From IMG/VR virus record IMGVR_UViG_3300045933_000271, positions 1 through 54,299 of that record: a stretch of DNA of 54,299 nucleotides. One strand, 5' to 3'. The translations under genes and the position numbers were made by a program. This DNA is from a virus (lineage: Duplodnaviria > Caudoviricetes). Positions within the stretch are counted from its first letter, which is position 1, and every line of letters begins with the position of its first letter. Below the pieces are notes generated by a model, which had not been told where the DNA came from, did not search any database, and saw only the letters and a list, made by a program, of their open reading frames with translations. Below, in pieces: positions 1 through 42,894 of the stretch.

Positions 1-13
1 CCCAGCCGCCTCT
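1..13 (+). repeat. Terminal direct repeat / circular overlap (copy 1)
   Basis: CCCAGCCGCCTCT is identical to 54287..54299. Confidence 0.95.
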
Positions 14-21
14 CTCGCCAT
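1..21 (-). CDS. First 7 codons (MAREAAG) of the sigma factor gene, continuing at 54286
   Basis: ATG at 21..19; after merging the overlap the frame runs without stops into the GTG at 54202 and creates an intact CPQC-x12-H-x4-H finger. Confidence 0.85.
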
Positions 22-185
22 GCCCACTCTCTCGCTCCCCGTTTACTGCGCCTACTGTTCCGCCCGACCCATCCCAATTTTTCAGGGGAGGACCCCCCGG
101 ATCCTCCCCACCCCGGTCGCGGCCTCTCACCCTCTCTGCCTGGCCGCTGCTCCTGTCCCTGGGCTACATCCCCCGGGTTGACGAA

Positions 186-1778
186 CTACTTCTTCTTGGC
201 CGCCTTGGCCTCGGCTTCGAACTTCCCGCGGAGGCCCTTCTCGAGGGCCTTCATGTCGATCTTGAGCGCCTTGACGAAGTCAGCCAGTTCCATCCCGTTG
301 TTCCAGTCCTCGCAGCCGATGTCCTGGATGCAGAGCGAGAAGATCGCCACCTTGGCGAGCTCCGGATCGCCCATGTTGATCAGGGCATCGCGGAGCTTCT
401 TGTTCCTGAGGCCCGCGAGCTTGGGGAACTCCGTCTTCTGAAACTCTCGGTTTTCGTAGCCGACGTTCTCGAATTCGTTGGCGACCAGGAAGGCGACGGC
501 GCTGCGAGGGATCTCCCGGACCTTGTTCGAGATCTGGTGCCAGGCCTCGAGCTTGATCTTCTTCTCCAGCTCGGCCTTCGCCTCGGCGCGCGCCCTCTCG
601 TTCTGCTCCTTGAGCTCCTGGGCGGGGCTCTTGGGCTTCTGCGGGCTGGAGTAGCTGTGGTACTTCGGCTTCGGGTTGTGGACGCTGCAGCTGGCGGCCG
701 TGCAGACCTGGACCGACTGGCCGCGGTTCTTGCCGTCCCAGTAGTAGCCGATCCCAAGGTTCTTGCACCGCTTCTTGCCCGGCTCGTGGTACTCGCCCTT
801 GCGCTTCACGCCGGCGCGGCCCTCGATCGCGGCCAGGCGCCAGTTGTACTGCTCCTCGGAGATGACGATGCACTTGGTCTTCTGCGACTTCAGTCCCTTG
901 ATCTGCCGGTCGAGCCAGGTGTTGAACTTCTCCTTGAAGCAGTCCCGATCCGTGCAGGTCGAATCCTTCTGGACGTCGGGGAAGAGCGCGGGCGTGTTGC
1001 CGGTCCGCTTCGGGCACGCCGCACAGGAGCCCGCCTTGGGGACGAGCTTCTCATCCTTCATGTCCCACGGCATCCGGCCGAGATCTCGGTGGATGTCGTC
1101 GTCGATCCAGCGGGCCAGGGCTCGGACGGGGATCAGGGACTGTTCCATCTTGGGCTTGTGACCCCAGTCGTCGCGATCGCCTTCGGCGACGTCGACCTTC
1201 TGGATGCAGTGCTGGAGGGCTTCCTTCTGATCGTCCGGCGTGAGCCGCGCGATCAGGATGGCGTGACCGGCGGTGATCTGGTCGCTCAGGAAGGCCTGCT
1301 GCGCGGTCCCGGTGAGCTCGGTGAGCTTCAGCCGCTGCCAGATGTAGGACACGCTCTTGCCCACCTGGGCCGCGAGAGACTCGACGTTGTGGCGTTTGCG
1401 CTTCAGGAGCGCCTGGTATCCCTCGGCTTCCTCGAGGGGATGAACGTCCGCACGCTGGAGGTTCTCGATCACCTGGGCCTCGAGGGCCTGGTCATCCGAG
1501 AGCTCGCGGATTATGGCCGGGATCTCGTTCAGGCCCGCCTTCTTCGCGGCCCGGTACCGCCGGGCGCCGGCGACCACTTCGAACTTCGCCCCGATGGGCC
1601 GGACGAGGATCGGGACGATGACGCCCTGCTCCTTGACCGAGGCCGCGAGGTCCTCCATCGCCTTCGGATCGAATGTCCGCCGCGGGTTGGTCTTCGACTC
1701 CACCGCCAGGTCGAGAGCAAGGAGCTTGAACTCCTGCTCGACCGCCGCCGTTTCTGTCGCCACCTTCTCCTCCTTCAC
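186..1778 (-). CDS. parB: ParB/RepB/Spo0J family protein with Cys-rich and coiled-coil C-terminus
   Basis: NPRRTFD..LAASVKEQGVIVPILVRP, VVAGARRYRAA (GxRR CTPase box), IENLQRADVHPLEEAEGY, HTH LAAQVGKSVSYI; CAACPKRTG..CTDRDCF resembles long PRTRC-type ParB. Confidence 0.92.
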   Translation of the reverse strand: MKEEKVATETAAVEQEFKLLALDLAVESKTNPRRTFDPKAMEDLAASVKEQGVIVPILVRPIGAKFEVVAGARRYRAAKKAGLNEIPAIIRELSDDQALEAQVIENLQRADVHPLEEAEGYQALLKRKRHNVESLAAQVGKSVSYIWQRLKLTELTGTAQQAFLSDQITAGHAILIARLTPDDQKEALQHCIQKVDVAEGDRDDWGHKPKMEQSLIPVRALARWIDDDIHRDLGRMPWDMKDEKLVPKAGSCAACPKRTGNTPALFPDVQKDSTCTDRDCFKEKFNTWLDRQIKGLKSQKTKCIVISEEQYNWRLAAIEGRAGVKRKGEYHEPGKKRCKNLGIGYYWDGKNRGQSVQVCTAASCSVHNPKPKYHSYSSPQKPKSPAQELKEQNERARAEAKAELEKKIKLEAWHQISNKVREIPRSAVAFLVANEFENVGYENREFQKTEFPKLAGLRNKKLRDALINMGDPELAKVAIFSLCIQDIGCEDWNNGMELADFVKALKIDMKALEKGLRGKFEAEAKAAKKK

Positions 1779-1891
1779 AGGCCGATCACGGCCCGCAATA
1801 TCAGCAGCACGATCGGGAGGCTCACGATGAGCCTCAACGCGATCGCGCCGCCGCTTTCCCGGTCACTCGCATCCCTCTGGGTCACGTCCAC
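1775..1891 (-). CDS. Small single-TM peptide (38 aa, not in ORF track)
   Basis: GAGGAA RBS, GTG start, AIALRLIVSLPIVLLILRAVIGL; its TGA overlaps the parB GTG (GTGA). Confidence 0.55.
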   Translation of the reverse strand: MDVTQRDASDRESGGAIALRLIVSLPIVLLILRAVIGL

Positions 1892-1915
1892 GAGTTCCTC
1901 CTCTCTCTCTGGCCG

Positions 1916-2083
1916 CTACTTCTTCGCCGGCTCGCGCGCGGCCTTCGCCGCCGGGCATTTCGCCTCGTGCCTGGATCCGCAGTTCTTGTTGTTGAAGCCG
2001 TAGGCCTGGTGGACCGGCGCGCTGCAGTAGGGGCATGTCGCGATGCAGCAGTCCCCGCACTCGATGCAGATCTTGATGGGCAT
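1916..2083 (-). CDS. Small Cys-rich zinc-binding protein (55 aa)
   Basis: MPIKICIECGDCCIATCPYC..CGSRHEAKC; GGAGGG RBS; TGATG coupling with the upstream gene. Confidence 0.7.
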   Translation of the reverse strand: MPIKICIECGDCCIATCPYCSAPVHQAYGFNNKNCGSRHEAKCPAAKAAREPAKK

Positions 2084-2451
2084 CAAACCCTCCCTCCTTC
2101 CTGGTGCTGTTGGACCAGCGTCACCAGCTGGTCGCATTGTTCGATGGTGAACTTCCCGATGTGGGCCCCGTCGACGTCGAGGCCCATCGCCTGCTGCATC
2201 CAGCGGTAGGCGTCCGGTCGGCGCATGCGGCCGTCCTTCCAGAGTTCGTCGAAGGCCGCATGCGCGCGGATCCGCGCCTGTTTGGTCCGGCTGTCCGCGG
2301 GGATGCCCAGCGGCTTCCCGTCGGGGTGAGCGCCGTGCGTTCCCTTGCACTCCGGGAACCTAGTGCAGCCGTAGAACTGACCGAACCGGCTTTTCCGGAG
2401 CACCATCGGTGATTTGCACTCGCCGCACAGGACGGGAGCCGCGGCTTCCAT
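2083..2451 (-). CDS. Topoisomerase-type C4 zinc ribbon fused to DUF3268-like domain
   Basis: CGECKSPMVLRKSRFGQFYGCTRFPECKGT followed by GKPLGIPAD..RIRAHAAFDELWK..AYRWM..HIGKFTIEQC; start moved to coupled ATG 2451. Confidence 0.85.
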   Translation of the reverse strand: MEAAAPVLCGECKSPMVLRKSRFGQFYGCTRFPECKGTHGAHPDGKPLGIPADSRTKQARIRAHAAFDELWKDGRMRRPDAYRWMQQAMGLDVDGAHIGKFTIEQCDQLVTLVQQHQEGGRV

Positions 2452-8539: not shown

Positions 8540-8568
8540 ATTATGACGGCGAGGTGTTCAAAAAGCAA
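8540..8568 (-). promoter_or_regulatory. Sigma70-type early leftward promoter
   Basis: TTGCTT-17bp-CATAAT on the minus strand in an AT-rich patch; predicted +1 near 8533. Confidence 0.65.
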
Positions 8569-8619
8569 CAGCAATTCGAAAGTATAGGCGATTATTTTTT
8601 AACTCATTTAGAGGGCCAT

Positions 8620-8808
8620 TTAGAGCCCTTTATTCCGCTTTCGCCGCCTCAGGATACGAACGGCCTTCAATCGCTCGGCGTTCATGGCGGCGATCCGGCA
8701 CTTGTCCGTATCGAACCGCTGCCAGTCTCGGCTGGCCTGATACTTCTTTCCGCACCATTCACACCTCGCCGGTCGAAGGAAGGGCCGCCACTTCCGCCGT
8801 CGTGGCAA
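8620..8808 (-). CDS. Small basic zinc-finger protein divergent from the recombinase
   Basis: CEWCGKKY..QRFDTDKCR; very Arg/Lys rich; own promoter upstream. Confidence 0.6.
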   Translation of the reverse strand: MPRRRKWRPFLRPARCEWCGKKYQASRDWQRFDTDKCRIAAMNAERLKAVRILRRRKRNKGL

Positions 8809-8829
8809 AGCACCCCCTGTCGCACGTGA

Positions 8830-8857
8830 AGTTTACAGTGCCCCCCAGCAGGGTCAA
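8830..8857 (-). promoter_or_regulatory. Sigma70-type promoter for the 62-aa ORF
   Basis: TTGACC-16bp-TAAACT on the minus strand. Confidence 0.5.
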
Positions 8858-9048
8858 AAGTATTCGGTATCGGTTACAATAAATATGAAACGTGAGTATA
8901 GGCATTTTTGTATAAGGGAGACGCAGTAGGGTCTGCGCTGGGTGGGAACGCGACCGGGCCTCCCGCGGGGCTTCAAGTGTGATACTCCGCGGAGGGAGTC
9001 AGAGGCGGCACGGGGAAAAGGATTGTTCGCCGCCGATGGTAGGGACGG

Positions 9049-10116
9049 TTGCGTGCCCGGGTTGTACCGCCAGCGGTCTCGCCCGAGATGGAGCGCTGGC
9101 TCTCCCAGCTCGCCAATCGAGGTCTATCCTCGAACACCATCTACGCCTACCGGAAGCGCCTGGACTGGTTTTTTGACTGGCTCCGCGGCACGGGCATGTC
9201 CTTGCTCGAGTTCACCTCCGACGCGATGGAGCAGTGGAAGTCCGACATGCGTGTCGCCCAGAAGCTCTCGATGCAGACGATCAAGGATCGATCCCTCACC
9301 GTAGCCGGCTTGTACGAATGGCTATGGCAGAAGAAGATCGTCTCCGAGCCCATCCACGTTGAGCCCATCAAGGTCCCCAAAAAGATCCCGAGGTATTTGA
9401 CCGAGGACCAGGTCCTGAAGGTGGTCGAGGTCGCGCGTTCGGTGAAGGCGGAGAAGCCCTTCTACCAGACGCGCGACCTCGCCCTCGTTGAGACCTTCTA
9501 TGCAAGCGGCGGCCGACTCTCCGAGGTTCTCAGCATGGACCTCGCCCGGACGAACCTGGACGCGGCCGAGGCGATCATCTCCGCGAAGGGGCAGAAGGAG
9601 CGGCTCCTGCGCCTGACCCCCGCGGCGGTCCGGGCAATCCGCGCCTGGCTTCAGGAACGGGCGGGGAAGCTCGAGGGCATGAAGAAGTCGGGCGAGGACG
9701 CGCTCTGGATCAGCTACTTCGGAAAGCGGCTTTCGGACTCGGGCGTGTGGCTCATCTTCGAGGGCCTCTGGCGCGTGGCGGGCCTGTCGGCGAAGCTCCA
9801 CCCTCACATGCTGAGACACTCGTTCGCCACCCATCTGCTCGAGCGCGGCGCCGACCTCCGTGAGGTTCAGGAACTGCTCGGGCATGGCGACGTCGGGTCG
9901 ACCCAAATCTATACCCATGTGTCCCAGCCCAGGCTGAGGAAGGTCTACCGGCGATCGCACCCGCGGGCGGTGGACAAACCGGTGGAAGAACCGGGGAAAC
10001 CACGCGCGATCGCCGTCACCGTCCACTTCACGGCCGACGAGATCCAGCGTTGCTGCGAGCTCGCTGAGGCTGCGGGGATCCCGCTCGAGGAATGGCTCCG
10101 GGGAAGGGTGCTTTAA
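9049..10116 (+). CDS. XerC/XerD-like tyrosine recombinase (integrase) with C-terminal RHH-like extension
   Basis: SAM-like N-domain (LSSNTIYAY), [50 protein letters not shown]: R-K-H-R-H-Y catalytic set intact. Confidence 0.95.
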
Positions 10117-10513: not shown

Positions 10514-10924
10514 GTGCTCAGGATAGGTCAAAGTTATTGGTTCGGCAGGAACATCAGGCACCTCTACTTCATCGTCTCCGATCCGGATCTTAATCCCGAT
10601 GAAGTGGTCGCCGTCAACATGACGACGATCAATCACGGGGAGAAATACGATTCCTCGTGCGTCCTCCATCCCGGCGATCACGTAGCAGTGACGCGCCCGT
10701 CGTACATCAGCTACTGGAGAATGCAGATTTCCAGCAGATTCAAGATCGAAGACGCAATCGCGATCCGTGTCTTCAGTCAAGACAGGGACCTCCGCCATGA
10801 TGTGCTTAGGATGATTCAAGCAGGGCTGATCAAATCCAAGGACTCAAAGCGCCGGGCGAAGGAGATCCTTATCGACCAGGGCGTGACCGCTGTCGAACTC
10901 GACGCGGCGGAAGAGGAGCTCTAG
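10514..10924 (+). CDS. PemK/MazF-like putative toxin
   Basis: HLYFIVSDP..VVAVNMTT..DSSCVLHPGDHVAVTRPSYISY pattern of MazF-fold proteins; adjacent to a Panacea gene. Confidence 0.65.
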   Translation: MLRIGQSYWFGRNIRHLYFIVSDPDLNPDEVVAVNMTTINHGEKYDSSCVLHPGDHVAVTRPSYISYWRMQISSRFKIEDAIAIRVFSQDRDLRHDVLRMIQAGLIKSKDSKRRAKEILIDQGVTAVELDAAEEEL

Positions 10925-11490
10925 GAGTTGAGGACCGAGCCCAGGAAATAGTCCTCGGCAGCTTCTGCTCGGATCCGATCGATTTGCTCCTCGGACTTGC
11001 CGACTTGCCGGAGAATCTCTTCGACCGGGATCTGAAGTCTTGAGCCGTTGGGATTCTTCCACTCGGGCAGGCCATGGGTTAGCTCGACCAGGTCCCACTT
11101 GCTCATCCCTTCGCACGCGTCGCTGACCTCGTCGAGGAGCGCCGTCTCGGACTCGGAGAGGTTTCCGGCGCCAGGATCGTCTTGGAGGGCAACGTCTACC
11201 TCACTGGTCTTCTTGATGAACCTATCCCAGATCCCGGCCCTGGGCGTGAATGCCCCGCCTTCGCCGGTGATGAGGTTGAGCAGATTACTCAGCACGGGGC
11301 CCTTATTCATGGAGACGTAGAGATCCCCGACGATGGGCCGGCCGTTCGCGCGGAAGCTCTCGCGCTCGGCCAGATAGAGGAGCTTCATCAGGGCCAAATA
11401 GGGCAGCGTACCCTGGCGGCGCTTCAACAGCCAAGCAGCCACCTGGGTGGCCTTGGCCTCGTTGAACCGGTACTTGATCTGATCTTTCAT
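10921..11490 (-). CDS. Panacea-domain (DUF4065/SocA-like) antitoxin
   Basis: FNEAKATQVAAWLL..LMKLLYLAERES..GRPIVGDLYVSMNKGPVLS..LVELTHGLPEWK. Confidence 0.88.
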   Translation of the reverse strand: MKDQIKYRFNEAKATQVAAWLLKRRQGTLPYLALMKLLYLAERESFRANGRPIVGDLYVSMNKGPVLSNLLNLITGEGGAFTPRAGIWDRFIKKTSEVDVALQDDPGAGNLSESETALLDEVSDACEGMSKWDLVELTHGLPEWKNPNGSRLQIPVEEILRQVGKSEEQIDRIRAEAAEDYFLGSVLNS

Positions 11491-11604: not shown

Positions 11605-11755
11605 GGGCATTTATATGGGGTACACACGATTCCAGCTTTCATCACAATTTAGTCAATAAATCATAATCGTATGGCCGTGTTTGATTTATGGTTATGTTTA
11701 ATCAACTGGGTCGTCTTATCTGTGTAGTAAATGATCTTTAAGAAACAGATGACCC

Positions 11756-11846
11756 GGAGGGTTGACCGAACGGTAAGGAGCCCGGCTTTAGAACCGTGGC
11801 GACCGCCTAGCGGCGGTTTGGGGGTTCGAATCCCCCACCCTCCTCA
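11756..11846 (+). tRNA. Non-canonical class II (long variable arm) tRNA, Ser-like scaffold, 8-nt anticodon loop CUUUAGAA
   Basis: Acceptor GGAGGGT/ACCCTCC 7 bp; D loop with GG; T arm GGGGG-TTCGAAT-CCCCC; variable arm GACCGCC-TAGC-GGCGGTT; anticodon stem CCCGG/CCG(T)GG; discriminator U, no encoded CCA. Confidence 0.85.
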
Positions 11847-11863
11847 ATCCGAATGGAGGATCG

Positions 11864-12073
11864 ATGGGCGACCTGACGTTGGACCAGCTGGCGGCCTTGG
11901 TGGGCGAGGCGATTGGCCTCGAGGACGACTCCCTCCTGAGCGAGATCCGGACGGCGGAGGACCTCGACGAGGCGATCCGGCGGGTGGAGGCGATGGCCGA
12001 GGACGCGGCCGCAGCCCTGGTGGTGTTGAGGAGCGAGAAGAAGCGGGCTCAAGCCCAGAAAGGGAAGAGGTAG
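11864..12073 (+). CDS. Hypothetical protein (69 aa, helical)
   Basis: GGAGG RBS 3' of the tRNA; GC3-rich codons. Confidence 0.75.
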   Translation: MGDLTLDQLAALVGEAIGLEDDSLLSEIRTAEDLDEAIRRVEAMAEDAAAALVVLRSEKKRAQAQKGKR

Positions 12074-12077
12074 ACGA

Positions 12078-12368
12078 ATGGCTAAAAGCGAAGCGGCCAC
12101 GTTCACGCAGCCCGGCCCCTACGAGGTGGAGGAGCACGATGCCGTCCGAGATCTCTGGAGGATCCGGACGGCCCAGGGCCTGATCATCGGCCCCATTTAT
12201 GGCAGGGGGACCGCGGAGCTCATGGCCGCGGCGCCGACGATGCTGGCGGCCTGCAAGCGGTCCCTCGAGCTGATCAAGGACTGCGGTTTCGGCGGCTCCA
12301 ACACCAGGGCCGAGAAGCGCATGGAGAAGTACCTGGCGGACGTGGTCAAGCTGGCTGAAGGTCGGTAG
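12078..12368 (+). CDS. Small phage protein related to the 7674..7973 family
   Basis: FTQPGPYEV..AELMAAAPTMLAAC..VKLAEGR. Confidence 0.75.
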   Translation: MAKSEAATFTQPGPYEVEEHDAVRDLWRIRTAQGLIIGPIYGRGTAELMAAAPTMLAACKRSLELIKDCGFGGSNTRAEKRMEKYLADVVKLAEGR

Positions 12369-12407
12369 AAACGAAAAGGGCCGCGCTGCTAGCGGTCAGC
12401 GCGGCCC
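12369..12407 (-). terminator. Intrinsic terminator for leftward read-through
   Basis: 11-bp stem GGGCCGCGCTG/CAGCGCGGCCC followed on the minus strand by TTTTCGTTT. Confidence 0.7.
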
Positions 12408-12441
12408 GGGTTGCCGAACGGCATTCAGAGGGTAGCTCAAC

Positions 12442-12654
12442 ATGACGAAGATGTCAACCATGGGACGTGGTGGAAAGCGGCCGGGCGCCGGCCGGCCTAA
12501 AAAGGATCCGGAGGATCGGCTCAAGCTCTTCGGCCTCTACCTCACCGACGAGCAGCGCACGCGGTATCAGGACGCCGCCGGCGCCGAAGGCCAGGACCTC
12601 CAGGACTGGATCCGCCGGCATCTCGACGCCGCGGCCGCGCGAATCCTGAAATGA
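12442..12654 (+). CDS. Small DNA-binding protein (GGxRxGAGRP motif plus ribbon-helix-helix-like)
   Basis: GRGGKRPGAGRPK..FGLYLTDEQRTRYQDAAGAEGQDLQDWIRRHL. Confidence 0.8.
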   Translation: MTKMSTMGRGGKRPGAGRPKKDPEDRLKLFGLYLTDEQRTRYQDAAGAEGQDLQDWIRRHLDAAAARILK

Positions 12655-39820: not shown

Positions 39821-41329
39821 CTATTCCTCGCTCGTGGCTCCGATGCGCGCGAGGTCCTCCTGGACCTGCTTTTCCATCTCGGGGGTGACCTTGACGCCGC
39901 CCTCTCCGCCGGCGATCGCCGCGGCCTTGGCGTCCCGCTCCTCGCGCTCCTGATCCCACTCCTCCTGCGCCTCGTCGAGGGGGCGCAGCTGCATCTCCAG
40001 GTCGTCGGCCATGCCGATCGCGTCGAGGCGCTTCCGGAGGGGAACGGACTCGCCTTCCGCCAGGGTGGCCTCGGCGTCCATGATCTTGAGGAGGACCTCT
40101 TTGTAGAGCTGCTGCTTGCCGGGCGAGAGGCCCCAGGCCTTGATGAAGGTCTTTGACTCCTCGAGGGCACGGCGGCCTTTGTTGAACAGGATCACGCGGT
40201 CGACGACGGGCTGCAGGATCCTGGACACGAACTCGCCGACCCGGGACTGCTGGATCTCGCCCAGGCGGTTCTCGTGGACCTCCGCTCGCGCGCGGGATCC
40301 CTGCGGCTCCGACGTGGCCGACTCGCCCGGGATGAGCCCGCACTTCAGGATCCGGACGCCCTCGGCGTCGATCGCCTGCTGGAACATGTCCCCGCGCTTG
40401 TCGTCGGTGAGGTACTGGATCTCGTTGTGGCGGTTGCCCTTCTCGTCGCGCTTCCCGGAGAGGACCACGTAGGAACGGCTCTTCAGCGCCGCGAGGGCCT
40501 TCCGCATGAGCTCTGTCGCGTCGATGGGCTTGTTGTCCTTGTCCATCGCGGTGCCGTTGGTGGCGTAGCCGATAGGCGTCGGGTGAGCCCGCCCCTCGAA
40601 GTAGGTGTTGCGCAGGAAGATCAGCCCCGACTGGTCGTACCACGGGGTGTAGGCGGAATCGTAGATGCCCAGGCCGGTCAGGCGGCCCCACTCATCCTCG
40701 ACCCGGTGGGTCCACAGGAGGAGCTCGGAGGCGTCCACCGTGACCGACTTCCCATCGGTGCGGTCCTGCGTGACGGACGAGAACTCGTCGGTCTTCTCGT
40801 CCGAGTGGAGCGTGATCGTGCGCGGATCGATGCCCTTCACGCGCTTGATGGACCAGGCCGCCGGCAGCGTGATCGAATCGGTCTGCCCCTTGGCCTTGTC
40901 CTCTAGGTCGAACGAGAAAGGACCGGATTGCCAGATGGGCTGCTGGACCTGGAAGCCGTAGAGCGGAGAGAGCGAAGCCGACCTGGAAAGCTCCGGAAAG
41001 ATCGGTCGGACCATCGCGTCCACGAGAGCGGCGAGCTGCGGATCCCTGCTCTCGATCGTCCACCGCATGTTGACGATTGGCGAGCGGACGAGCGCCGACA
41101 TGAAGTCGACGTCGGGCGAGTAGCGCATCATGATCTTGCGCGTGATGCCGACCGAGTGCGGCTTGAACTCGCCGATGATCTTCGTGACGTAGGGCGGGAA
41201 CTCGTGGCTCCCGTAGTGGGCCTGAAGTTCCATGTCGGATTCAGGCGTTGGACGGTCCCCGTCGGCCGCCAGCTGGATCCGATTGAACATGCTGCCGACC
41301 ATGGACAGGGCGCGGTTGAGGAGCATCAT
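39821..41329 (-). CDS. Portal protein (DUF935 / Mu gp29-like)
   Basis: YGFQVQQPIW, IDPRTI, WGRLTGLGIYDSAYTPWY..YFEGRAHPTPIG, GSRARAEVH; ATGA-coupled to terL. Confidence 0.88.
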   Translation of the reverse strand: MMLLNRALSMVGSMFNRIQLAADGDRPTPESDMELQAHYGSHEFPPYVTKIIGEFKPHSVGITRKIMMRYSPDVDFMSALVRSPIVNMRWTIESRDPQLAALVDAMVRPIFPELSRSASLSPLYGFQVQQPIWQSGPFSFDLEDKAKGQTDSITLPAAWSIKRVKGIDPRTITLHSDEKTDEFSSVTQDRTDGKSVTVDASELLLWTHRVEDEWGRLTGLGIYDSAYTPWYDQSGLIFLRNTYFEGRAHPTPIGYATNGTAMDKDNKPIDATELMRKALAALKSRSYVVLSGKRDEKGNRHNEIQYLTDDKRGDMFQQAIDAEGVRILKCGLIPGESATSEPQGSRARAEVHENRLGEIQQSRVGEFVSRILQPVVDRVILFNKGRRALEESKTFIKAWGLSPGKQQLYKEVLLKIMDAEATLAEGESVPLRKRLDAIGMADDLEMQLRPLDEAQEEWDQEREERDAKAAAIAGGEGGVKVTPEMEKQVQEDLARIGATSEE

Positions 41330-42894
41330 CCGAACACGCTCCCCTGGGGCGTGCCGAAGACCTCGTTGTCCTCGGGGCCGAGCATCTGGTCGGGGTCCAG
41401 GACCTCGGGATCGGGCTGGTCGGCCAGCCAGTTGTAACCCTGGGCGGCTCCGTCGATCATGTCGATGGGCTTCCCGCCGGGGAAGCGGCGGACCTGCTCG
41501 AGGAACTTCTCGTTCCAGTCGGCCTCGAGGAGGAAGACCTTGCCCGCGTGCGCGGCGGAGGCGAGGGGGTCGGCGCGGAGTTGCTTCGAACCTTCGTTGC
41601 CGGCAACGACGATGTGGGTGGAGTGACCGTCGAGCTTCTTCTCGATGGCCTCGGCCTGCGTCTTTCCTCCGGATCCGGGCTCCTGCTCGATGATGACGTC
41701 GATGCTCTTGCCGTCCGTCTTTGCGACCTGCTTGATTTCGGCGTCGCGCTCGCCGCTCGACCACCAATCGGCAACGATGTTCGTGATGTAGTACTCGCGG
41801 TCCTCGCCGATGCCGGTGAAGCCGATCTTGACGCCCGCCGTCTGGGCGGCCGACTTGTTCTTCGTGCCGGCCAGGTCCCAGGAGCGGCAGTAGCGGAGGT
41901 TCGCGGGGACCTGCTTCACGATCTTGAACCACGCGCTCTGGAACTCGCCTCCCTCGCGCGGGTAGGGCTGCTGGAGGTACATCGTGGCGAACCAAAAGGG
42001 GAGGGTGTTCTTCTGGCGCTTCTCCATCGTCGCCAGGCTGAACAGCTGCGGGCAGACGACGTCACCCTTCCTACGAGACCAGCCCAGGTCTTCTTTGCGG
42101 CCGTCGGGATGCTCGATGTGGAAGGCCTCGTCCTTGTCGGCGATCGCGGGCAGGATGAGCTCGGTCCACTTCTCGCCGCTCTCCTTCGCCGTCTGCTGAA
42201 TCCGCGCGACCAGGTCCTTATGGGACCAGCGCGTCATGACGACGATCTTGACGCCGCCTTCCTTGAAGCGGCTGGAGAAGACCGACTGGTACCAGTCGTG
42301 GATCTTCTCCAGGTGAGCTTCGGACGAGGCCTCCTCGGCGTTCTTGATCGGGTCGTCGATAATGCCGATGTCGACTGGCCGGCCGGTAAGCGGTCCGCCT
42401 ACGCCGGTCGTCACCATGCCGCCGCGGCGGAACTCTCCGCTCCTGAGGTCGTGGAGCTCCCAGTCGTCGGCTGCGCGCTTGTCCTGGCGGACTGTGATGC
42501 CGAATACCTCAGGTCCTACGGTTTCCATCAGATCGCGCACCGCGCGGCCCTTGTCGGAGGCGAACGTGGCCTCGTAGGACGATAGGGCGATGCACTTGTC
42601 GGGGAAGTTGCCGCAGATCCAGGCGGGGAAGTACTTCGACCAGAAGTCGCTCTTGCCGATCTGTGGCTGGATGCAGACGAGGAGGTTGAAGCCGACGCCG
42701 GCGAGCAGCGCGCCGGCGATCACCAGCGCGACGCGGTTGAACAGCGCCGTGTGCCTATACAGGACCCATTCCCCCTTACTGGCGAACATGCCGAGGTGTC
42801 CCGGCGTCCACGCTGCCTGACGCGAGTCGTTCAGCGCATCGAGCAAGAAGTTCTCGGCCTGCCTCGTCTGCGAGGAGTTTGCGAGCATTGCCAT
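41326..42894 (-). CDS. terL: Terminase large subunit
   Basis: QPQIGKS Walker A, GVGGPLTGR, IIDDPIK Walker B, VMTRW, YLQQP, SWDLA nuclease motif, IEQEPGSGGK. Confidence 0.95.
   Translation of the reverse strand: MAMLANSSQTRQAENFLLDALNDSRQAAWTPGHLGMFASKGEWVLYRHTALFNRVALVIAGALLAGVGFNLLVCIQPQIGKSDFWSKYFPAWICGNFPDKCIALSSYEATFASDKGRAVRDLMETVGPEVFGITVRQDKRAADDWELHDLRSGEFRRGGMVTTGVGGPLTGRPVDIGIIDDPIKNAEEASSEAHLEKIHDWYQSVFSSRFKEGGVKIVVMTRWSHKDLVARIQQTAKESGEKWTELILPAIADKDEAFHIEHPDGRKEDLGWSRRKGDVVCPQLFSLATMEKRQKNTLPFWFATMYLQQPYPREGGEFQSAWFKIVKQVPANLRYCRSWDLAGTKNKSAAQTAGVKIGFTGIGEDREYYITNIVADWWSSGERDAEIKQVAKTDGKSIDVIIEQEPGSGGKTQAEAIEKKLDGHSTHIVVAGNEGSKQLRADPLASAAHAGKVFLLEADWNEKFLEQVRRFPGGKPIDMIDGAAQGYNWLADQPDPEVLDPDQMLGPEDNEVFGTPQGSVFG

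Follow-up and report, generated by a model that had tools for sequence, protein, structure and literature searches.

A phage-borne serine-type tRNA gene with an eight-nucleotide anticodon loop in a soil virus

Transfer RNAs (tRNAs) with an extra base in the anticodon loop are known mainly as laboratory frameshift suppressors, as designed four-base decoding tools and from one mitochondrial lineage. The +1 suppressors sufD, SufB2 and SufJ and the engineered quadruplet tRNAs on Escherichia coli tRNA-Ser scaffolds (qtRNA-Ser), for which early tRNA-Ser library work was reportedly done by Magliery and colleagues in 2001, are laboratory mutants or designs with an 8-nt loop, in which U33 stands before and A37 after the four-base anticodon. 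According to passages of PMC9094753, the serine scaffolds decode quadruplets and remain specific for serine, A37 is preferred, and natural quadruplet tRNAs are expected to be very rare. A natural 8-nt loop with UAG is found in yeast mitochondrial tRNA-Thr1(UAG), which reads CUN triplets and assigns another amino acid to them (PMC3113583, in part). Moreover, the main text of Mukai et al. (2017, PMC5389517) describes allo-tRNAs and other irregular Ser-type tRNAs of soil Acidobacteria and phages, which combine a long variable arm and G73 or U73, taken there as a serine signature, with anticodons for rare codons (CUA, UUA, AGA, AGG) or for UAA, lie near toxin-antitoxin genes and are of doubtful translational use. 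The subject of this analysis is a tRNA gene of the IMG/VR virus record IMGVR_UViG_3300045933_000271 (Duplodnaviria; Caudoviricetes); the record's whole length of 54,299 bases (G+C about 65%) is here called the window, and an original prediction made from the sequence alone had singled out the gene for an 8-nt anticodon loop.

The window tRNA shares with qtRNA-Ser the 8-nt loop, the flanking U33 and A37 and a tRNA-Ser body, whose synthetase ignores the anticodon, but it is natural, phage-borne and conserved in a second phage, and for its putative codon, CUAA or CUAG, no target site was found in the phage. With tRNA-Thr1 it shares a natural loop containing U-U-UAG (UUUUAGGU in yeast, as given in passages of PMC3113583, and CUUUAGAA in the window); tRNA-Thr1, however, is derived from tRNA-His, is charged with threonine and has the enlarged loop itself as a synthetase identity element. 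The likeness to the irregular Ser-type tRNAs described in the main text of PMC5389517 lies in the long variable arm, the discriminator, the non-serine anticodon, the soil origin and the toxin-antitoxin neighbourhood. The 8/4 or 9/3 branch of 12 bp that defines allo-tRNAs is not found in the window tRNA, which is 7/5 and whose U8 would face a C and cannot extend the acceptor stem. The term 'anticodon loop' does not occur in the main text of PMC5389517, where no 8-nt loop is mentioned. Nor did the literature searched, which excluded subscription papers and the supplements of PMC5389517, contain an account of a phage tRNA whose anticodon loop has 8 nt; these supplements, in which further irregular 7/5 tRNAs are shown, may hold relatives. 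By analogy, the window tRNA appears most like engineered qtRNA-Ser or tRNA-Thr1 in its working, and belongs to neither.

Structure and conservation of the tRNA gene

ARAGORN reported a tRNA at 11756-11845 on the plus strand, gave its type as '???' with a four-base anticodon ttag at position 33, and labelled it 'tRNA-?(Stop|Leu)(ttag)' in its FASTA output. The Rfam family RF00005 matched 11756-11844 over model positions 1-71 of 71 with 37.4 bits (gathering score, 29; E over the full window, 2.5e-4) and was the sole Rfam family above threshold; a match to sX4 (24.4 bits versus 70) was set aside as a chance or T-arm match. The minimum-energy fold is the cloverleaf, at -46.1 kcal/mol (z = -2.85, with 2 of 200 shuffles equally stable). 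It has an acceptor stem of 7 bp and a T stem of 5 bp, a canonical T loop (GGUUCGAAUCC) and a variable stem of 7 bp, among which are one G-U and one A-U pair. The anticodon stem runs from G25-C45 to G30-C39 with a bulged U42 or, alternatively, forms a canonical stem of 5 bp with a C28.U42 mismatch. Under both readings of the stem the loop comprises 8 nt, one more than the 7 nt of a regular tRNA. The discriminator U is followed by CAA, such that CCA is not encoded in the window copy. The tRNA with its 8-nt loop, the paired acceptor, T and 7-bp variable stems, the irregular anticodon stem, the U discriminator and the missing CCA, all of which the original prediction had put forward, were thus borne out.

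The loop can be read as C32-U33-[UUAG]-A37-A38, as UUA with an extra base on the 3' side, or as UAG with an extra U. The first of these has the form expected of a quadruplet tRNA, with one extra base and UUAG placed between U33 and the purine A37, while UUA, which is complementary to a stop codon, occupies positions 34-36 only if the extra base is counted 3'; the ARAGORN label gives 'Stop|Leu'. The extra T is not an assembly error, because contigs of two other runs are identical to the window: a 799-nt contig of run X2 aligns to 11622-12420 and a 284-nt contig of run X4 to 11605-11888, each with 0 differing letters and 0 gaps. Both are soil runs from other samples and studies. The T-run, which had been singled out as a point to be verified in reads, is thus borne out by these contigs.

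Homologues were sought in a metagenome collection with a pattern in which the D loop and the T loop were fixed and the acceptor, anticodon and variable arms were left free. Among the 26 loci matched, one contig of soil type (L024, 1,233 nt) was the sole homologue with the same ttag loop. L024 is 88.8% identical to the window over a block of 169 nt (11680-11848) and 76% identical over 12369-12609, whereas between the two blocks, and in the upstream gene, the sequences are unrelated. Within the tRNA, 5 of 89 positions differ, all of them in stems. Two compensatory pairs are found among these changes, G-C to A-U at 30-39, which closes the 8-nt loop, and A-U to C-G at 47-62 in the variable stem, and the fifth difference opens the last variable-stem pair. 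None of the 33 unpaired positions has changed, and all eight loop bases are identical. In two million simulations, two or more compensatory pairs arose from 5 random substitutions at a frequency of 1.6e-4. Moreover, the tRNA has diverged by 5.6%, compared to 24% for the downstream gene, and L024 encodes U73-CCA.

Because the changes fall in stems only, include two compensatory pairs and leave the loop the same, the window tRNA is, as far as sequence comparison can tell, an intact and selected tRNA-like gene, not a decaying copy or a scar of a phage attachment site (attP). The earlier argument that intact arms speak against simple decay is strengthened by the identical contigs and the compensatory changes, and the search proposed for a conserved 8-nt loop succeeded with L024. 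Other searches yielded no further homologue. The tRNA gave no blastn match among 50,697 phage records, and the exact 19-mer of its anticodon arm gave none in IMG/VR. A pattern of loop plus T loop matched 18 IMG/VR loci, 7 of them with tRNAs, all of which have 3-base anticodons and none of which is related; a pattern from D loop to T loop matched two, both belonging to a tRNA array of the L045 type described below. None of the eight loci reached through neighbour proteins (Panacea 0, integrase 0, 96-aa ORF 1, 70-aa ORF 7) holds a tRNA, and across five related virus records RF00005 gave only two ordinary class I tRNAs and one match below threshold.

Some features of the locus would suit a relic without present function, either a captured tRNA-Ser in decay or a scar of integration or excision related to attP. 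An integrase gene lies 1.6 kb upstream, a partial same-sense copy of the D-arm region behind the cargo genes in both phages points to past recombination at the tRNA, and the encoded CCA has been lost in the window copy. The two compensatory pairs and the unchanged loop speak against such a relic, as does the full cloverleaf including the 5' half, which attP would not need. A host tRNA sharing the 3' half was not encountered in IMG/VR, nor in the reference genomes, for which the search used the D-arm word only. A 19-nt word of the T arm and acceptor stem occurs at three IMG/VR loci, namely a phage tRNA-Ser(UGA), another phage tRNA-array locus and a chance match in a coding region. The AT-rich non-coding stretch that precedes the integrase, at ~8540-8930, would be a more typical location for attP than the tRNA. 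In that stretch the word GTATAGGC is repeated at 8582-8589 and 8897-8904, and two CTCTAAATG-like repeats lie on the minus strand. We regard a relic as very improbable, and the tRNA-derived attP of the original prediction as unlikely.

Serine descent and possible decoding

Ordinary tRNA-Ser genes were found at the match in 20 of the 26 pattern loci; the other six are L024, three loci without a tRNA call, an 87-nt 'Asn' tRNA and a Ser-like body with the anticodon CCU (L030). Over its first 27 bases, the window tRNA has a single mismatch to tRNA-Ser(CGA) genes, for example that of L036, and its D arm, ACC-GAACGGUAA-GGA, is identical to that of the tRNA-Ser(CGA) of L023, L036 and L037 and of three reference genomes. 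A search of 185,579 reference species located the 19-nt D-arm word only in three tRNA-Ser(CGA) genes of Bipolaricaulota/Acetothermia and at one chance site; this group was not adopted as the host, as the phage comes from soil runs. Compared to the Ser(CGA) genes, the loop has gone from C-U-[CGA]-A-A to C-U-[UUAG]-A-A, the anticodon being the sole change. The window tRNA has the T stem and tertiary-contact bases of a working tRNA-Ser. Likewise present are the long variable arm and the acceptor pairs G1-C72, G2-C71 and A3-U70, which we take to be identity elements for seryl-tRNA synthetase (SerRS).

Two features depart from a typical serine tRNA: in place of G73, both the window copy and L024 have U73, and in place of NGA or GCU the loop holds UUAG. 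However, U73 is present in all six ordinary tRNA-Ser genes of two phage tRNA arrays, L045 (anticodons GCU and CGA) and L065 (GGA, CGA, UGA and GCU). These phage genes share with the window tRNA the acceptor stem GGAGGGU/ACCCUCC, U73 and a class II body, to which the Ser(UGA) gene of L065 adds a common T arm; they differ in having 7-nt loops and normal serine anticodons and in standing in large tRNA arrays. On sequence grounds, the window tRNA is a serine tRNA by descent. The Ser-like body proposed originally from the GGA start and long arm is upheld by the D arm, the acceptor pairs and the variable arm. The claim of mismatched identity elements holds for U73 and the non-serine anticodon, but it overstated the oddity, given the U73 of the phage-array genes and a genuine Ser(CGA) D arm.

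Several of the loci recovered deserve a description of their own. The L065 array (1107-2326, minus strand, on a phage contig of 114 kb) comprises all four tRNA-Ser isoacceptors, each with U73, and that of L045 (1491-1685, plus strand, on a phage contig of 26 kb) comprises two, both with U73-CCA. Such a whole phage set of U73 serine tRNAs may, for example, escape a host factor that reads G73. On a metagenome contig of 1.3 kb, L030 (279-369, minus strand) is a 91-nt tRNA with a serine body (long variable arm, same D loop, G73-CCA) and the anticodon CCU for Arg AGG, and thus another Ser-type tRNA aimed at a rare codon. The 87-nt tRNA of L020 (682-768, minus strand), which is part of a ten-tRNA array on an 8-kb metagenome contig, is irregular in having a class II body with a long variable arm and the Asn anticodon GUU.

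SerRS does not read the anticodon. Because of this, and because phage tRNA-Ser genes commonly have U73, SerRS most likely still charges the window tRNA with serine. The ancestral CGA has given way to UUAG, while C32-U33 and A37-A38 have been retained on either side, and the loop can present UAG, preceded by one more U, to CUA, a rare leucine codon. Most likely, the tRNA would pair with CUA(A/G) on the ribosome and insert serine there, with a +1 shift or in frame. We tentatively read the gene as encoding a seryl-tRNA that pairs with CUA, either as a quadruplet or as a triplet in the manner of tRNA-Thr1. A bolder proposal, which we hold to be unlikely, is a natural quadruplet decoder, in which the UUAG seryl-tRNA would read CUAA/CUAG and shift ribosomes by +1 at the rarest leucine codon of a high-G+C host. 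The phage would turn it, as a translational weapon or switch, on foreign genes rich in rare codons, for instance those of defence islands and rival prophages, with its own genes largely avoiding CUA followed by a purine.

The phage's own codons and stops were counted in 64 called genes with 16,301 codons, and +1 sites were searched for in the phage genes and genome. CTA is rare, with 27 occurrences among these codons, about two thirds of them in the accessory region at 9-17 kb. A purine follows in 6 of the 27 cases, compared to 63% for all codons and to 39 of 55 for the other NTA codons (Fisher p = 4e-5). We rejected this depletion as a sign that CUA-A/G is avoided, since CTAG is depleted about 3-fold in every frame: genome-wide, 34 CTAG were seen against 106 expected under a second-order model (observed/expected 0.32), with none in codon phase 1. 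CTAA/TTAG stands at 0.60 of expectation and is not clearly frame-specific.

The loss of that support is one of several points that weigh against CUA pairing. Neither the 26 CTAA and 34 CTAG sites on both strands nor the 18 CTA with a coding-like upstream frame are followed by a coding-like +1 frame. Furthermore, all three CTA codons that could be placed on solved homologues stand at conserved leucines (codon 79 of a response regulator, on KdpE and 3a0r, and codons 26 and 92 of the integrase, on XerD), and the phage therefore means leucine by CUA, in contrast to yeast mitochondria, where the CUN box is truly reassigned and tRNA-Leu(UAG) has been lost. Insertion of serine or a frameshift at CTA, including the six in-frame CTA-A/G sites, would harm phage proteins. 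U73 and the stem mismatch may lower serylation or use on the ribosome, only two sequences are known in all (the window and L024), and some allo-tRNAs of like flavour are charged but unused in translation, according to the main text of PMC5389517. Because the phage has no programmed site and uses CUA as leucine, any decoding effect would lie outside its own core genes; it would hit host or competitor genes with many rare codons, or amount to low-level regulatory mistranslation. The recoding tRNA of the original prediction may hold as an activity, but the phage offers no target for it, neither a +1 site nor a stop in need of read-through.

The stop codons bear on another reading, in which C32-U33-[UUA]-G37 with an extra 3' A makes the tRNA an ochre-type nonsense suppressor, a seryl-tRNA that reads UAA, and UAG by wobble, and yields read-through products. 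This is consistent with the ARAGORN label, and the anticodons of (9/3) allo-tRNAs include one that reads UAA (PMC5389517, main text). The 64 genes end in TGA 27 times, in TAG 23 times and in TAA 14 times, which is unusual at 65% G+C. After TAG, 10 of 17 gene pairs share a reading frame, and read-through there would yield fusions of whole proteins; the corresponding counts are 2 of 11 after TAA and none of 21 after TGA. This pattern is weak and post hoc: same-frame pairs amount to 12 of 49 overall, below the one third expected by chance, and 15 of the 21 TGA pairs overlap the next gene and cannot be in frame. A phage with a UAR suppressor should, moreover, avoid UAR stops and not favour them.

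The gene ends themselves are ordinary: start codons and ribosome-binding sites are present, and at three places (22181, 23882 and 26025) an ATG comes immediately after TAG. The standard code (table 11) reads the conserved genes whole, with the capsid covering profile positions 3-328 of 329, the terminase match spanning residues 52-502 of 522 and the helicase intact, and no in-frame stop that splits a conserved domain was found in the scanned phage genes. TAG or TAA recoding of the phage was rejected on these grounds. Phages with recoded stops have in-frame stops throughout their late genes and suppressor tRNAs with 7-nt loops and CUA or UCA anticodons. The window tRNA resembles these suppressors as a phage tRNA that might read a stop, but as the phage is read whole by the standard code, its assignment as the suppressor of a recoded phage was likewise rejected. 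Finally, G37 after A36 is unlike the bacterial pattern for tRNAs that read codons starting with U. Taken together, we consider a nonsense suppressor distinctly unlikely.

Cargo cassette, phage and possible roles outside translation

The tRNA sits in the region of accessory genes downstream of the integrase (Table 1). Its upstream block includes the invariant CGTCTTATCTGTGTAGTAAA and an inverted repeat whose halves are TTGATT (11681-11686) and AATCAA (11700-11705); a scan of the block for the sigma-70 consensus gave no promoter, and a promoter role is suggested by its position alone. Downstream, the GGAGG ribosome-binding site of the next ORF begins 11 nt past the discriminator, and it is followed by two ORFs and a hairpin, which makes the small operon headed by the tRNA in the original prediction plausible. 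The 96-aa protein resembles the PF27050 Phage_P22_Y8K6 clusters (score 0.91; a lead only), while L024 has in the same slot one unrelated ORF of 98 aa with a signal-peptide-like start. The conserved 70-aa gene behind the cassette is weakly ribbon-helix-helix-like (RHH_7, 18 bits, below the cut-off of 27). Like the two cargo ORFs, the other neighbours scanned against Pfam, NCBIfam and PADLOC gave no family at threshold.

Table 1. Positions of the tRNA gene, its parts and its neighbours in the window
Feature	Position	Strand	Basis
Tyrosine integrase (XerD-like)	9049-10116	+	PF00589 E 1.8e-39; XerD 1a0p E 2.6e-39
SocA/Panacea antitoxin-type domain protein, divergent neighbour	10921-11490	-	PF13274 E 6.5e-24
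Conserved AT-rich upstream block, possibly promoter- or operator-like	11680-11755	+	Part of the 88.8% block shared with L024
Class II tRNA gene, tRNA-Ser-derived	11756-11844	+	ARAGORN, Rfam, fold, contigs of other runs, homologue
Acceptor stem	11756-11762/11837-11843	+	
D arm	11765-11779	+	
Anticodon arm	11780-11800	+	
8-nt anticodon loop CUUUAGAA (C31 U U U A G A A38)	11786-11793	+	ARAGORN and fold
Bulged U42, or C28.U42 mismatch, in anticodon stem	11797	+	Fold; kept in L024
Variable arm	11801-11818	+	
T arm	11820-11836	+	
Discriminator U	11844	+	
3' trailer, CAA instead of CCA, with GGAGG (11855-11859)	11845-11863	+	Sequence; L024 has CCA there
Variable cargo, 69-aa ORF (ATG at 11864)	11864-12073	+	No Pfam/NCBIfam/PADLOC family
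Variable cargo, 96-aa ORF	12078-12368	+	No Pfam/NCBIfam/PADLOC family at threshold
G+C-rich hairpin closing the cargo	12378-12407		Kept in L024; T-run on the minus-strand side only
Same-sense partial copy of the tRNA 5' part (D-arm region; positions 4-18, one gap)	12408-12422	+	Directly behind the hairpin
Conserved 70-aa gene after the cassette in both phages	12442-12654	+	76% nucleotide identity to L024

The partial copy of the tRNA behind the hairpin has a counterpart in L024 (1021-1043), where an exact 15-mer of positions 6-20 is followed by AGGAG. The scores of these fragments were reached by 0 of 500 shuffles for L024 and by 17 of 500 for the window. The swapped cargo thus lies between the tRNA and a partial copy of it, an arrangement suggestive of cassette exchange or of recombination in the past. 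A motif CTAGC(G/A)G was also observed in both the loop of the variable arm and the loop of the hairpin, and at its G/A position the phages differ in the hairpin just as they do in the variable arm.

As regards the neighbouring genes, the putative RNase toxin of the original prediction was not confirmed: the divergent gene in the window encodes a SocA/Panacea antitoxin-type protein, and no toxin family and no tRNA-directed toxin or defence family was found among the scanned neighbours (Pfam, NCBIfam, PADLOC). In L024, the Panacea slot (2-310, minus strand) holds a divergent ORF of 103 aa with a Gp49/HigB-like match of 16.8 bits, below the cut-off of 23.9. The slot beside the tRNA would thus hold genes of toxin-antitoxin type in both phages, the L024 match being below threshold.

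This setting also allows a reading in which the RNA is tRNA-like and works outside translation, its enlarged loop excluding it from normal decoding. It may then act as a decoy or sponge and draw off a host or rival factor that recognises tRNA-Ser, for example a nuclease or a toxin that modifies 3' ends. Alternatively, it may be a donor for a non-ribosomal reaction, or simply a module with which the cargo mRNA begins and which serves its processing and stability. The position in a hot spot of toxin-antitoxin-type and accessory genes fits this proposal, as do the conservation of the tRNA and upstream block as one unit in front of swapped cargo, the short distance from the discriminator to the next ribosome-binding site and the lack of a decoding target in the phage. 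In addition, related irregular Ser-type tRNAs near toxin-antitoxin systems are described as inactive in translation in the main text of PMC5389517. However, the eight loop bases and the pairing that closes the loop have been kept, which a mere RNase P handle would not need, the T stem and tertiary contacts are those of a working tRNA-Ser, and the scanned neighbours include no identified target of the toxin or defence kind. We judge a non-translational role to be rather unlikely, though more probable than a suppressor or a relic.

The phage is temperate and siphovirus-like, as judged from Pfam and PHROG scans of 66 ORFs picked by codon-position G+C. Genes for a large terminase, a portal, a major capsid protein and a major tail protein were matched, together with replication and regulation genes (ParB, a helicase, a Sak4-like annealing protein, SSB, a DnaB-like helicase, RuvC, a helix-turn-helix repressor-like protein and a sigma-70 factor), and nearly all phage genes lie on the minus strand. 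The terminase is at most 33% identical to those of the closest known phages, and the major capsid protein had no match among the 50,697 phage records. The public runs that contain the stretch are soil metagenomes, with no RNA run among them. The longest ORF of the portal (39821-41995, minus strand) overlaps the terminase gene (41326-42894, minus strand) by 670 nt; its Mu-type match begins only at residue 304, and the true start is probably near 41325. A second ARAGORN call at 41392-41475 (plus strand), with a 2-base anticodon, was dismissed as a false positive, since it lies inside the terminase/portal coding region and is without Rfam support.

Meaning for irregular tRNAs

Our best guess is that the gene encodes a functional, phage-borne tRNA-Ser derivative, which stands first in an exchangeable cassette and is preceded by a conserved upstream region of its own. 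The tRNA is probably transcribed from the upstream block as the leader of this small cargo cassette, and RNase P, together with 3' trimming and CCA addition, would release it. To our knowledge, the serine scaffold is the one tRNA body whose synthetase ignores the anticodon, and it is on this scaffold that selection has maintained the 8-nt loop in two diverged soil phages. A tRNA that is both charged and used would represent natural, virus-borne decoding that shifts the frame or reassigns a codon, and it would offer a ready-made component for expanding the genetic code. Should it play no part in translation, it would join the little-understood irregular Ser-type tRNAs that lie beside toxin-antitoxin genes in soil bacteria. 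Either way, it provides a short and concrete RNA with which to ask what irregular tRNAs do.

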